This document shows, piece after piece, positions 52,087 to 54,380 of a stretch of DNA of 64,000 nucleotides (position 1 is the first letter of the stretch; each line of letters starts with the position of its first letter). The notes beneath the pieces are model-generated. The model ran no database searches. It was not told the DNA's origin and saw only the letters and a list, made by a program, of their open reading frames with translations. Made by a program: the position numbers and the translations under genes. The DNA lies in assembly GCA_934167095.1 (NCBI GenBank), contig CAKPKE010000002.1:67990-131989 (forward strand), in the 5' to 3' direction. This stretch comes from an uncultured Clostridia bacterium. GTDB taxonomy: Bacteria > Bacillota > Clostridia > TANB77 > CAG-508.

Positions 52087-52164
52087 AAAGAGCAAATAAA
52101 AAAATATAATTATTTAAGAGTTAAAAAATAAAAAAATGAAGAGATAAAATGTTGAAGATATAAA

Positions 52165-52202
52165 TAAAAAAAGAAAAAGTCGGTCGCTAAAGAGCAACCG
52201 GC
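52165..52202 (-). terminator. Terminator of GC-rich cassette A
   Basis: GCCGGTTGC..GCGACCGAC hairpin followed by a T-run (minus strand). Confidence 0.6.
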
Positions 52203-52303
52203 TTTTAGAGAATCTAGCCTAAGAGCTGAGTCTGCTCAGCTAGGCTGTGGGTGGCACAAACTGTACCACCACTAGCTCTTGGTAAACATAGAGAAGAACG
52301 GTG

Positions 52304-53203
52304 TTAGTGCTGTTCTTTGTTTACCAAGGGGGCAAGGTTCCATACGCAGGTCAAGCCTCTGTCAGTGTCCATAATCATTGATTCCAGAAAACGTCGACTG
52401 GGGCATTCATAGATGAAGCCAGGGATACTGCTGTCGACAATGACTGCATGGTCGTCCTCGAAGCCAACAAGATTGACGTAGTGGCCCTCTGTTTTGGTAG
52501 GGTCGTTCAACATGTGGCCGTAGTTGACGCGTATTGTAACGGGAATGCCACGGCTCAACGTGTCAAGGATAGAACTAAATGTATACAGCCGAGTAGCCAT
52601 ATAAGGCGTAACGTGACCCATCAATCCAATGAGTTCATCGATAAAGAACATGGAACCGCCAATACCAACAAGATTGCCAAGAAGTTCCTGGACATCTTTG
52701 AGATCCTTGCAGTTCTGAACATTGGGGTCATCAGGAAATGCTTCAAGTACAGCTTGCATTGTAAGCACAGGCATGCCTAAAGCAGGTCTCCGCCTTTTTT
52801 CGAAGCATACTTTACGGTACCCGCCAGATACTGCGACCTTGGTAAGGGCGCTGAAGCTGAAAGGTACTTTGCCATTGTAGATGATAGACAATGCATTGTA
52901 TGGTGCAAGTACAACGCACCCACAATGCTCAATAGTTCCTACTGCACCAAAATTTTCAGAGTGGTTACTTGCAAGTTCAAACTTACCAGCTTGTGCAAGC
53001 CCACGGCATGTGTTGATAAGATGCTGGGAGTTTGAGAGATCGGCAAGGACACGCAGGTCGCTTGTGGAATCCAAAAATTTCTGGGTTGACTGGCCAATAT
53101 AGTTGCCAAACATTTTGTGTAAATCCATACGAAAATTGTGTTCTGCTTTGCTCTTATCGCTTCCCGGAAAGGAAGACAAATCGAACTCTTTCTGGTCGTA
53201 CAT
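52304..53203 (-). CDS. GC-rich cassette gene A: 299-aa protein, possible papain-fold (C39-like) cysteine peptidase
   Basis: IEHCGCVVLAPYNAL (candidate Cys) and EGHYVNLVGFEDDHAVIVD (candidate His/Asp), resembling the GHYVVL.GYD motif of C39-like domains. GC far above the surroundings. AGGAGG RBS. Confidence 0.55.
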   Translation of the reverse strand: MYDQKEFDLSSFPGSDKSKAEHNFRMDLHKMFGNYIGQSTQKFLDSTSDLRVLADLSNSQHLINTCRGLAQAGKFELASNHSENFGAVGTIEHCGCVVLAPYNALSIIYNGKVPFSFSALTKVAVSGGYRKVCFEKRRRPALGMPVLTMQAVLEAFPDDPNVQNCKDLKDVQELLGNLVGIGGSMFFIDELIGLMGHVTPYMATRLYTFSSILDTLSRGIPVTIRVNYGHMLNDPTKTEGHYVNLVGFEDDHAVIVDSSIPGFIYECPSRRFLESMIMDTDRGLTCVWNLAPLVNKEQH

Positions 53204-53287
53204 AAAAACCTCCTAAAATGTGTGTATGTTTCTTCGGACGATTTTGACTTCGATTCTCTTTAAAAATAAACTTCAAAGTCATTATTA

Positions 53288-53316
53288 ATTATACCACTTA
53301 TGTTATGTAAAGTCAA
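53288..53316 (-). promoter_or_regulatory. Promoter of cassette A
   Basis: Minus strand TTGACT, 17 nt spacer, TATAAT, then the shared leader ACTTTGAAGTTT. Confidence 0.65.
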
Positions 53317-53329
53317 ATTTAGTAAATAA

Positions 53330-53370
53330 TGAAAAGAAAAATGCCGGCCACTATTTGCAAGTGGCCGGCA
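53330..53370 (-). terminator. Terminator of GC-rich cassette B
   Basis: GCCGGCCAC..GTGGCCGGC perfect hairpin followed by ATTTTTCTTTTC (minus strand). Confidence 0.8.
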
Positions 53371-53428
53371 TTTAGAGAACCGGACTGAAAAACCAAAGCT
53401 TTGGCTGATTCAGCAGTTTCTGAAGGAT

Positions 53429-54268
53429 TCATCTAGCGTTGATGTTCCATGCGCAAACACGGTCGCTATCTACAGCCATTGCGTCCAGCAAGCAATTGCT
53501 GGGGCAGTAGTTGATGAAACTGTAGAGGTGTCCATCAGAAAAGAAGGTATTTACGGTAACAGCGTTGTCACCTTTGAATCCAACCAGGAGGACGTAATGT
53601 CCACCTTCCAGGCCAGGGACAGAGAAGTAGACAGCATCGTTCACGTAAATAGGAACCGGACAGCCGTTGCTGAGCGCTTCAAAGATCTCAGAGAGATGGT
53701 AGAAACGCGTGTTGTTGTACGGGTGGGTTTTGCTGATGAAAGCGATGAACTCATCAGCAAAGTACGGAGAAACTCCAACGCAAGCAGGCGCGCCCTGAAC
53801 CTCATTGGAATGCTGAGATGGAGTTCTGTGCAAGCTATCCTGATCTCCCAGAAACTCATCCAACAAGCAATCAATGGGATCGAGAGTGGGATACTCATAA
53901 ATCCCATAGCCCTTAATGTCCGCTACCTTGATGAGAGTATCAAGCGGGTACAAAGACTTGCCTTTTGCAACCATCATAGCGTTGTACAGGGTAGCTGTCA
54001 GGTTATGCTGTTGCCTGCGATAGTCTTGAGTAGTTGCGAACTTGTCGGCGATTGTTAATCTTTCCGCAGTATCAACCAACTCTTTGTTGTAAGCACCTGT
54101 AGGGATGCTAAGGTACGGGTTTTCCAAAAAGCCTAAGATATTAGAATACAGGCTTTTTTTACTGGCTTCACTACAATATTTACGATGCATCCGCATCAAG
54201 TTTGTAGAGTTGAAGTCAGGAAAGTTACGGATAAGGATTTGCTTCGATACTTCCGCTAGCAATTGCAT
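53429..54268 (-). CDS. GC-rich cassette gene B: 279-aa paralog of gene A, candidate catalytic Cys apparently not conserved
   Basis: Shares ..LS.G.PV.I.VN.., EGGHYVLLVGFKGDNAVTVN, CPS...L..M..D.DR...WN with gene A. Region QQHNLTATLYNAMMVA aligns to HCGCVVLAPYNAL. Confidence 0.55.
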   Translation of the reverse strand: MQLLAEVSKQILIRNFPDFNSTNLMRMHRKYCSEASKKSLYSNILGFLENPYLSIPTGAYNKELVDTAERLTIADKFATTQDYRRQQHNLTATLYNAMMVAKGKSLYPLDTLIKVADIKGYGIYEYPTLDPIDCLLDEFLGDQDSLHRTPSQHSNEVQGAPACVGVSPYFADEFIAFISKTHPYNNTRFYHLSEIFEALSNGCPVPIYVNDAVYFSVPGLEGGHYVLLVGFKGDNAVTVNTFFSDGHLYSFINYCPSNCLLDAMAVDSDRVCAWNINAR

Positions 54269-54351
54269 AGTGGAAACCTCCTTCTATTGTGTTGATTTCT
54301 TATCGAGCAACTTTTTGGTTCTCTTGGTAAAGAAACTTCAAAGTTATATCT

Positions 54352-54380
54352 ATTATAACATTTATATTATGTAAAGTTAA
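54352..54380 (-). promoter_or_regulatory. Promoter of cassette B
   Basis: Minus strand TTAACT, 17 nt spacer, TATAAT, then the leader AACTTTGAAGTTT. Confidence 0.6.

Follow-up and report, generated by a model that had tools for sequence, protein, structure and literature searches.

Why do two adjacent genes of about 46% guanine plus cytosine (GC) stand in a bacterial chromosome whose GC content is about 28%? The question is raised by genes A and B, which lie on the minus strand at positions 52304–53203 and 53429–54268 of the DNA whose first lines are given above, a stretch of 64,000 nucleotides of contig CAKPKE010000002.1 from an uncultured Clostridia bacterium (lineage TANB77; CAG-508) that we call the window; each gene, together with its own promoter, leader and terminator, is here called a cassette. 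Our best explanation, to which as a whole we give an even chance of being right, is that the cassettes are autonomous units that express an active and a catalytically dead protein of the papain fold, that their GC-richness is maintained, and that their mRNAs are structured and closed end to end. Both the cause of the GC excess and the function of the proteins are things that we infer from the evidence below.

Composition of the two cassettes

In 100-nt windows the GC content is 0.41–0.53 over two tracts (about 52150–53250 and 53350–54300), 0.15–0.28 in the promoter/leader gaps (about 0.25 at 53200–53350, and 0.15–0.25 beyond 54300) and 0.21–0.33 outside the cassettes. Gene A has a GC content of 0.461, with 0.52/0.37/0.49 at the first, second and third codon positions (GC1, GC2 and GC3; the last is 0.487), and gene B a GC content of 0.463 and a GC3 of 0.532. 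The remaining 49 open reading frames (ORFs) of the window have a mean GC3 of 0.152 (standard deviation 0.052), so that A and B stand 6–7 standard deviations higher, and GC1 and GC2 of both genes are elevated in addition to GC3. A preliminary description of this DNA had reported GC-rich genes in an AT-rich genome, which the windowed plot bears out, and a switch of composition at the boundaries of the coding sequences; the latter holds at the 5' side, where the GC-rich tract begins close to the start codon, but not at the 3' side, where its limit is the terminator and not the stop codon (the 3' untranslated region, or UTR, of A is also GC-rich). The same description had noted codons that the host avoids, CGG among them, and indeed CTC, CTG, CCC, TCC, ACC, GTC and CGG are used in A and B and are nearly absent from host genes; for example CTC, whose host frequency is 0.00, occurs three times in A and six times in B. 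AAA and GAA stay the major Lys and Glu codons in the cassettes. An assembly chimera was considered and rejected, as the same arrangement is present on at least nine independent metagenome contigs (ENA and Logan assemblies).

The only other ORF of the window with a GC3 far over 0.15 encodes 156 amino acids (AAs), is rich in Glu and Lys and has a TTG start (10275–10745, plus strand; GC3 0.42). Its excess is chiefly in G-ending codons, and neither Pfam nor NCBIfam has a model that matches it.

The GC anomaly is a property of a gene family

A word-indexed search of 5.8 billion clusters returned a single relative of B and four of A, the latter at 99, 60, 57 and 55% identity, and in that collection relatives more than 50% identical to A occur at this same locus only. 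A profile built from A and B reached considerably further when run with HMMER through 1.84 billion representatives, to 72 clusters (57 of them at E<1e-10), most of whose proteins are 270–340 AAs long; the family motifs are FGAVNTVEKSGC, GYRxW, GIGGS, TR, PVPxRV, GGHYV, DSS and AW[DN]. No member was found in IMG/VR, a phage collection gave no DNA match, and a scan of reference genome contigs found nothing with two narrow A/B-derived peptide patterns, which do not cover the wider family. The loci examined are all in AT-rich genomes of uncultured gut Clostridia (flank GC 0.22–0.35 at 17 loci, with no GC-rich host among them), where the family genes occupy unrelated housekeeping sites, beside MurT/GatD, PolA, MnmA and rpmG-secE-nusG. 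They are stand-alone genes with a TGnTATAAT promoter, a ribosome-binding site (RBS) of the AGGAGG type and a hairpin terminator, and most of them are not on mobile elements. They form a small protein family that has not been described before and that is known to date only from uncultured gut Clostridia with AT-rich genomes.

It is to this family that the GC anomaly belongs; among the 19 family genes whose DNA was obtained it recurs in most, at unrelated chromosomal sites. The GC3 values, with members named by our own handles, are as follows:

A-type alleles: 0.59–0.62
P0006: 0.48 (neighbours 0.10–0.13)
L099: 0.44
P0007: 0.45 (neighbours 0.15–0.23)
P0020: 0.55 (neighbours 0.11–0.15)
P0035: 0.47 (ribosomal-protein and NusG genes about 0.12)
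P0057: 0.44 (flanks 22% GC)
Three further members: 0.36–0.41
L097, P0013, P0093 and L100: 0.21–0.26, near the host level

The value for P0093 is still about twice that of its neighbours (about 0.11). Neighbours of family genes in general have a GC3 of 0.07–0.23, and in L106 and L109 they include ribosomal-protein genes. Codon bias for high expression was rejected as a cause, as the ribosomal-protein genes of related hosts have a GC3 of 0.07–0.13.

One chromosomal slot, that of rpmG-secE-nusG and a flavin reductase gene, can be compared in three species; its flanking proteins are 81–98% identical, and the family members in it only 31–39%. These members have GC3 values that run from 0.22 to 0.47:

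L103, 679–1506: family member
L106, 3869–4891: family member
L109, 6001–6888: family member

An independent tandem pair is present in L109–L113, and consists of a 295-AA enzyme and a 234-AA paralogue in which NRY replaces GHY and the Cys region is missing. This pair (L109 6001–7767, and also in L110–L113) lies in the rpmG/flavin-reductase slot of an abundant gut species, with its protein on 133 contigs; in the dead paralogue, although it is AT-rich (GC 0.25), the excess of mRNA structure is at its most extreme (z -6.6; the measure is described below).

Divergence and substitution balance among alleles

Strains that are about 98% identical in the flanks of the cassettes, including the recombinase genes of the element that carries them, have either B and A (L006–L009) or a single A-type cassette (L001–L005 and L010). 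Between these alleles the promoter and leader are about 91% identical; in the A-type gene the 5' half of the DNA is unalignable and the 3' half about 75–80% identical. Codon-based estimates of synonymous divergence (dS) are 1.5–3 for the window allele against P0002, P0003 and P0004, and 0.3–0.9 among those three, and the ratio of nonsynonymous to synonymous divergence (dN/dS) of 0.15–0.24 indicates purifying selection. Mosaic recombination is evident in a tract of 99% identity between A of the window and P0002 (codons 256–285). On the other side of the range, P0093 has 0–2 differences in 888 nt across strains.

Among the lineage-specific third-position changes of P0002, P0003 and P0004, 51 are AT-to-GC and 49 GC-to-AT. 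If these genes were decaying from a GC3 of 0.6 toward the host equilibrium of 0.13–0.15, about one AT-to-GC change would be expected for every ten GC-to-AT changes (binomial p=5e-27). This balance means that high GC was the equilibrium while the alleles were diverging, and recent transfer followed by decay does not fit it. It is part of the best explanation that the GC-richness is maintained, by selection or by biased conversion, and is not inherited from a donor.

The window contains no reverse transcriptase, template repeat, silent donor copies or repeats, and there is no further DNA or protein copy of A or B. A diversity-generating retroelement or silent-cassette variation was rejected on these grounds: there are no second copies, and the ORFs of the carrier element are two recombinases, a 248-AA ORF and a 40-AA ORF.

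Layout of the cassettes

The features of the two cassettes are the following:

53288–53316, minus strand: cassette A promoter, TTGACT-17-TATAAT, TG-extended, 11 of 12 consensus matches
53204–53281, minus strand: cassette A leader, about 78 nt from the predicted start, with 5' hairpin, helix arm AGAGAATC and AGGAGG
53274–53280 and 53246–53252: cassette A 5' hairpin, GACTTTG paired with CGAAGTC
53209–53214: cassette A RBS, AGGAGG
52304–53203, minus strand: gene A, 299 AAs, candidate papain-fold cysteine enzyme (Cys96/His241/Asp257)
52170–52303, minus strand: 3' UTR of A, GC-rich with several hairpins, with 3' helix arm GATTCTCT
52181–52200, minus strand: cassette A terminator stem-loop, followed by a T-run
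54352–54380, minus strand: cassette B promoter, TTAACT-17-TATAAT, TG-extended, 10 of 12 consensus matches
54269–54346, minus strand: cassette B leader, 78 nt from the predicted start, with hairpin AACTTT:AAAGTT, helix arm AGAGAACC and AGGAGG
54277–54282: cassette B RBS, AGGAGG
53429–54268, minus strand: gene B, 279 AAs, paralogue of A, presumed pseudo-enzyme
53335–53428, minus strand: 3' UTR of B, with 3' helix arm GGTTCTCT and the terminator
53339–53373: cassette B terminator stem-loop, 14 bp

Much of this layout had been outlined before, and it survives closer inspection. The two host-type promoters with 17-nt spacers were both recovered by a consensus scan, each with a TG extension; the leaders, described as about 75 nt long with a shared start able to pair downstream, are 78 nt long and contain ACTTTGAAGTTT, which occurs exactly twice in the window (53268–53279 and 54333–54344) and forms the 5' arm of a 7–9 bp hairpin at the predicted +1; the AGGAGG sites are present in both; and the GC-rich terminators are stem-loops accompanied by the shared TTCTCTAAAWGCCGG, with two occurrences where 0.00 are expected by chance. 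The two shared motifs are thus really there, but their relationship had escaped notice: the leader motif and TTTAGAGAA are partners in a helix that joins the 5' UTR to the 3' UTR, of which TTTAGAGAA is one arm.

At the DNA level only the 65-nt promoter/leader segment can be aligned between the A and B cassettes (81.5% identity). The A promoter is 91% conserved across the allelic loci, and the stem of the A terminator has compensatory changes between alleles. A hairpin at the predicted +1, of the form (G/A)ACTTT(G) : (C)AAAGT(C/T) and 7–9 bp long, is predicted in five of five leaders with differing loops, and it abuts the leader-3' UTR helix. Sequestration of the RBS was considered and found no support. 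That A and B are two autonomous single-gene expression units is again a part of the best explanation.

Pairing of the leader with the 3' UTR

Folds computed for the whole predicted transcripts join a segment of the leader to the part of the 3' UTR that immediately precedes the terminator. The helix of A joins AGAGAATC (53252–53259) to GATTCTCT (52207–52214), and that of B joins AGAGAACC (54317–54324) to GGTTCTCT (53374–53381), with a compensatory T:A to C:G change between the two. Corresponding helices of other family members are:

P0006: GGAGGATCA : TGATTCTCC
L099: GAGGATC : GATCCTC
P0035: GAGGATT : AATCCTC, involving the true Shine-Dalgarno sequence (SD) and the stop codon
P0057: GAGGATTC : GAATTCTC
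P0007: AATCAAAGTCAT : ATGATTTTGGTT
L109 paralogue: GGGGGTA : TACCCCC
L097: bipartite helix

Complementarity between leader and 3' UTR is found in nearly every member, and its sequence varies from member to member. Compared with shuffles of each gene's own 18-nt 3' segment, the pairing with the leader is highly significant over 14 independent genes (Fisher combined p=1e-8), and of the 16 genes tested 8 had the cognate 3' segment in first rank among 14–16. Several members have as 5' partner the true SD or an SD-like GGAGGAT, and as 3' partner an anti-SD-like ATCCTC; in the cassettes of the window the 5' arm is AGAGAAYC, which is not the real SD. Interactions of this kind have been described for individual mRNAs: the B. 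subtilis hbs mRNA has a 14-bp 5'/3' UTR interaction that modulates cleavage by RNase Y (PMC5737220), and the 3' UTR of S. aureus icaR pairs with its own Shine-Dalgarno sequence (PMC3868564).

Structure within the ORFs

The ORFs were refolded after synonymous codon shuffling, either over the whole gene or, more strictly, within blocks of 40 codons. With whole-gene shuffles the native folding energy of A has z = -0.9, that of B z = -4.3, and those of eight relatives range from -2.6 to -6.9. With the block shuffles the family mean is -4.34 (range -1.75 to -6.57, n=12, including low-GC members and the AT-rich dead paralogue of L109), compared with -0.75 (standard deviation 0.97) for 13 host genes and -1.56 (standard deviation 1.38) for eight GC-matched E. 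coli genes; the family differs from the host and E. coli controls with Mann-Whitney p=3e-5 and 8e-4, respectively. In five of seven genes the structure is stronger in the sense than in the antisense strand, as expected for RNA, and the RNAalifold consensus energy of three alleles lies below that of column shuffles (z -2.7). This signal is one of generic foldedness and not of a defined architecture. General selection for extreme ORF structure has been reported (PMC6544989), and selection for structure and GC enrichment may be linked in the present family.

Taken together these observations suggest an mRNA design of five parts: a promoter with a TG-extended -10 region, a hairpin at the 5' end, an end-closing helix between leader and 3' UTR, an AGGAGG site and an over-paired ORF. 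Pairing of the leader with the 3' UTR immediately before a strong terminator would close the transcript end to end, and such a compact transcript would most probably be shielded from 5' exonuclease, from 3' exonucleases and from endonucleases that prefer AU-rich single strands. The consequence would be a long-lived mRNA whose decay is tied to translation.

The window also contains an RNase J-like gene (32132–33784, plus strand) with metallo-beta-lactamase, Beta-Casp and RMMBL domains. Its product would be a 5' exonuclease of the type expected to be blocked by a 5'-terminal hairpin.

A stronger version of this idea, which we put forward only tentatively and think rather improbable, is that the family is defined at the RNA level, its transcripts being selected as compact, end-closed, GC-rich particles that hold GC3 at 0.45–0.6 against AT pressure in genomes of 22–30% GC. 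Possible purposes would be an mRNA that outlives transcription (in dormancy, sporulation, or shut-off induced by phage or toxin) or an extra function of the RNA.

A candidate enzyme and its presumed dead paralogue

A and B are 30% identical (BLASTP, E=4e-27) and share C-terminal motifs, as had been claimed from the translations. The Pfam model Peptidase_C39_2 (PF13529) matches residues 202–256 only of A (24.5 bits, with a cutoff of 24) and scores 21.2 bits for B, under the cutoff; weak matches of the same kind are found in 22 of 45 family members. An AlphaFold2 model built from an alignment of 45 sequences has a pLDDT of 95.9 and a pTM of 0.93 (one from five sequences, with a pLDDT of 48, was unusable). 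The top Foldseek matches of this model are all in the papain clan, namely Alr0975, PeiR, the C39-like protein 3erv, CtaG and papain, and in a library of viral structures the best matches are phage entries labelled "Peptidase" (E 2e-3, TMq 0.42). In the model of A, Cys96, the second Cys of EHCGC and a family-conserved residue, is at the N-terminus of helix 96–108, His241 is on the β-strand 240–249, and Asp257 follows the next strand, so A has Cys, His and Asp in the papain order on the expected secondary-structure elements and B does not. Across the family the Cys is conserved in 36 of 45 members, the His in 39 and the Asp in 44, and there is an extra N-terminal helical hairpin with a conserved E-H-x2-R motif. 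B retains the His and the Asp and lacks both the nucleophilic Cys and the FGAV motif. Neither protein has a hydrophobic N-terminal stretch that could be a signal peptide.

These results support the view that A is a cytoplasmic papain-fold (clan CA) cysteine enzyme and B its catalytically dead paralogue, perhaps a partner or regulator of active A. The earlier proposals of a nucleophile in EHCGC that is missing from B, of an enzyme/pseudo-enzyme pair and of the lack of signal peptides all agree with this, and that of a papain-fold, C39-like peptidase stands for the papain-clan fold but not for peptidase C39 proper. The latter, bacteriocin-processing group was rejected, as there is no fusion or association with an ABC exporter and no double-glycine leader context; at the loci examined no ABC exporter or peptide gene is adjacent, and the genes, encoding about 280–300 AAs, stand alone. 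A sequence search of the PDB gave no significant match, and NCBIfam and PHROG models gave none. PADLOC models had no match at E up to 0.1 to A, B, three homologues or the 248-AA ORF of the element, and a known anti-phage defence system was rejected for that reason. The fast turnover of the family and its recurrent dead paralogues are a hint that the active/dead pair is a fast-evolving conflict system.

The carrier element and the split dac gene

The preliminary description had placed the cassettes inside an AT-rich element. This is incorrect, in that the AT-rich surroundings are bacterial chromosome, with genes for the DNA polymerase III alpha subunit, MiaB-like enzymes, alanyl-tRNA synthetase (AlaRS), MutL, FtsK, the RNase J-like protein, CdaA and a type IV pilus-like cluster, and with five tRNAs that are the sole RNA families above threshold in an Rfam scan of the window. 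The real element is an insertion of 6.2 kb (about 52071–58312) with two serine recombinases, in which the cassettes are cargo at the attR end. Its order on the plus strand is A, B, 40-AA ORF, recombinase 1, recombinase 2 and 248-AA ORF, and its features beyond the cassettes are:

51375–52058, minus strand: 3' fragment of dac (D-Ala-D-Ala carboxypeptidase, Peptidase_S11, PBP5-type)
52070–52075, minus strand: attR core ATGACT, right end, flanked by GAACATT, which supplies one arm of the inverted repeat in attP
54463–54585, plus strand: 40-AA ORF, MKESKYEIEVIFNENGVSFQELVEKILVNKILSKDFEDEL, with an 11-nt overlap with the start of LSR1
54575–55954, plus strand: large serine recombinase 1 (LSR1), with Resolvase, Recombinase and Zn ribbon domains
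55988–57373, plus strand: large serine recombinase 2 (LSR2)
57461–58207, plus strand: 248-AA ORF of the element, weak S1-like match under the Pfam cutoff
58298–58774, minus strand: 5' fragment of dac, cut within the SxN motif (between SAND and C)
58312–58317, minus strand: attL core ATGACT, left end, flanked by AATGTTC, which supplies the other arm of the inverted repeat in attP

The att sites were resolved by comparison with the intact dac genes in L012, L014 and L015. The attB site, AAATGACTGTGTAG, lies inside the SxN motif (SANDC) and in its restored form would read GCAAATGACTGTGTTGTTGC; attL is GCAAATGACT joined to ACAATGTTCAA, and attR is TTGAACATTCTATGACT joined to GTGTTG. The reconstructed attP has a perfect inverted repeat, TTGAACATT/AATGTTCAA, and the junction in the circular form would be GAACATTCTATGACTACAATGTTC. 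Judging by these sequences exact excision would restore the dac ORF; the rejoined protein matches only the generic DacA, DacD and PBP3 models, all under their cutoffs. All 80 related species, which comprise uncultured Clostridia and Clostridium sp. CAG:780, 508, 354, 567 and 440, have an uninterrupted dac and lack the element, the GC island and the leader motif (the best match is 78% identical). The 40-AA ORF is called in every related contig and is a candidate recombination directionality factor or regulator.

An element of the staphylococcal cassette chromosome (SCC) type with ccrAB was rejected, since the recombinases score 55–101 bits with the CcrB and CcrA models (cutoffs 700–900) and the insertion is in dac and not in rlmH (orfX); they are also far under the cutoff of XisF. 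The closest plasmid or viral matches to recombinase 1 have 27–38% identity. A phage or plasmid origin has no support, there being no DNA match in the phage collection, no member in IMG/VR and no PHROG match. The attP sequence was not found in a scan of viral contigs, nor were further attP-like sites found that could capture cassettes.

Three other features of the neighbourhood deserve mention. The VanW-like gene upstream of the split dac (59198–59593, minus strand) looks fragmented, with 131 AAs, and may be a pseudogene or frameshifted; in related strains it is two short ORFs (L001 4621–5299; L006 3629–4307). Between the dac fragment and the CmpB-like gene that converges on it lie about 115 bp (51153–51267) that match L006 in inverted orientation with 88% identity; they could be either a palindromic terminator acting in both directions or a polymorphism due to a small inversion. 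Finally, a type IV pilus/type II secretion-like cluster extends over 40903–50287 and 59679–60188, beginning with a T2SSE ATPase (40903–42816) followed by unannotated ORFs up to a 560-AA protein (48605–50287), and a prepilin-type N-methyl protein is encoded just past the element (59679–60188). Response to immunotherapy has been linked to a pilin of TANB77, an uncultured clade of the gut (PMC11680825).

Alternative explanations

The obvious alternative is a genomic island, that is, recent acquisition from a donor of about 46–50% GC on the recombinase element without time for decay. The codon-position pattern of A (0.52/0.37/0.49) would suit a native gene of a genome of about 46% GC, the cassettes do lie on a mobile element, the range of GC3 from 0.22 to 0.47 in one syntenic slot could mirror differing times since arrival, and AT-rich promoters may be simply the usual composition of promoters. 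Nevertheless we consider it unlikely, as several observations go against it: no GC-rich host was found at the 17 loci with known flanks, relatives of A above 50% identity are confined to the same locus in 5.8 billion clusters, third-position changes are 51 against 49 where about 1 to 10 is expected in decay, most family members are off mobile elements, and a conserved AT-rich promoter/leader is common to paralogues that are only 30% identical. Nor do we find it likely that the locus is a hot spot of recombination or hypermutation, at which GC-biased conversion or mutation drives both the divergence and the GC content with mRNA structure as a by-product. Saturated dS between alleles with flanks about 98% identical, the mosaic 99% tract shared with P0002, the rise of GC at all three codon positions and an equilibrium composition near GC3 0.6 are what such a process would produce, but it leaves unexplained why the UTRs are complementary and why the ORFs fold more stably than synonymous shuffles with equal composition. 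In addition, chromosomal single-copy members are near-invariant (P0093, above), yet members of this kind include the GC-rich P0035 in the same slot; dN/dS shows ordinary purifying selection; and the window lacks any reverse transcriptase, template repeat or silent copy.

Two further ideas attach the GC excess to translation or to the RNA itself. Codons rare in the host could slow translation or limit it to particular physiological states, in the manner of bldA and TTA in Streptomyces, and the seven codons nearly absent from host genes, together with the low GC3 of ribosomal-protein genes (0.07–0.13), do mean that the cassette codons are not those the host prefers. This is very unlikely to be the explanation, because the rise extends to GC1 and GC2 and so is more than a synonymous shift, Lys and Glu are still encoded mainly by AAA and GAA, and some family members have host-like codons. 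The transcript could instead be a functional structured RNA, either of dual function or as an intermediate in the spread of the cassettes, with the GC content having the same cause as in rRNA, tRNA and noncoding RNA (ncRNA). High GC within an AT-rich genome is a classic signature of ncRNA, and the excess structure, its bias to the sense strand and the covariation of the end-closing helix between members point the same way. We give this idea little probability too; the Rfam scan of the window produced no family matching the cassette transcripts, compensatory pairs in the ORF are not in excess among alleles, the protein is under purifying selection with a conserved catalytic triad, and duplication of the paralogues took the promoter along, which indicates a DNA-level event.

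The explanation that we prefer, autonomous units with maintained GC and end-closed structured mRNAs encoding an active/dead pair, has difficulties of its own. Gene A gives the weakest structure signal (z -0.9 and -1.75). GC3 and the structure z are uncorrelated within the family (rho 0.08), and three members and one dead paralogue combine structure with a GC content near that of the host, so the GC content may have a driver other than selection for structure. Compensatory pairs within the ORF number 8 among alleles where 8.4 are expected, and broken pairs exceed those of shuffles; a defined conserved RNA fold within the ORF is unsupported by these counts. The Foldseek matches to the papain clan are weak (E 0.015–0.1, TM 0.35–0.49, 12–15% identity), and the Pfam matches are at or under the cutoff. 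The transcription starts are predicted from promoter spacing, and DNA was obtained for 19 family genes out of the 72 clusters, the rest of which may include some with GC-rich hosts. All of these weigh against it.

Implications

Atypical composition is routinely taken as a sign of recent horizontal transfer, and if the high GC of these genes is really an equilibrium the family is a clear counter-example. A family-specific compositional equilibrium, if true, is not known to have been described for bacterial protein-coding genes, and would be an instance in nature in which the base content of particular genes is under selection or biased conversion. As expression units the cassettes have the look of a natural optimum and, if their features confer long mRNA life, could supply design rules for expression in Firmicutes and Clostridia. 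They would also offer a family-wide system for the study of communication between 5' and 3' UTRs, until now known from single genes such as hbs and icaR. At the protein level an uncharacterised papain-fold family with recurrent dead paralogues is defined in abundant uncultured Clostridia of the human gut, and the high-confidence model with its catalytic residues makes the substrate of the enzyme testable. The carrier element, finally, is new as well: it splits a gene, has two recombinases, and its att sites are resolved.

Comparison with known systems

Each component of the locus has a known relative: the papain clan, the intervening elements with serine recombinases, and the pairing of 5' and 3' UTRs. 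To our knowledge their combination has not been described, namely a family-wide equilibrium GC excess in genomes of 22–35% GC, together with ORF structure and a covarying end-closing helix. With the papain clan (PF13529/3erv, Alr0975 2bu3, PeiR and CtaG) the family shares the order Cys-His-Asp, the Cys at the N-terminus of a helix, the His on a β-strand and weak HMM matches to the His/Asp region. Unlike these relatives it has no dedicated Pfam, NCBIfam, PHROG or PADLOC model and has the extra N-terminal helical hairpin with E-H-x2-R, and unlike the C39 systems it has no signal peptide, no ABC-transporter fusion and no double-glycine substrate context.

In composition the nearest parallels are atypical genomic islands and variable loci rich in GC, for example Borrelia vls. 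They share with the cassettes a sharp discontinuity in an AT-rich genome, allelic diversity and, here, association with a mobile element; the present anomaly differs in being toward GC, in being confined to single transcription units, in recurring in distant homologues and in being at substitution equilibrium, and unlike vls the cassettes have no silent cassettes or repeats in the window.

As an insertion the element resembles skin, SPbeta in spsM and gin in being placed precisely, at a short core (ATGACT), within a coding sequence. Among described elements the nearest analogue is gin, a non-phage element that splits gerE in B. cereus and has several serine recombinases and the tiny directionality factor GirX (PMC5595907); both are small non-phage elements with tandem large serine recombinases and a tiny ORF beside the recombinase. 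In contrast to skin and gin the target here is a generic PBP5-type dac gene. The tandem recombinases also recall ccrAB of SCC, but here their scores are far under the CcrA and CcrB cutoffs, and the cargo consists of GC-rich cassettes and not of the resistance or phage genes of known elements.

5' stem-loops and STAB-SD sequences are stabilisers of mRNA, and the cassettes have a 5'-terminal hairpin and a strong true SD. In hbs and icaR, as here, a segment of the leader pairs with the 3' UTR next to the terminator. Those are single genes, whereas the present helix is kept across a family at 25–35% amino acid identity with its sequence changing, and here it is joined with an excess of predicted structure throughout the ORF and a three- to fourfold excess of GC3.

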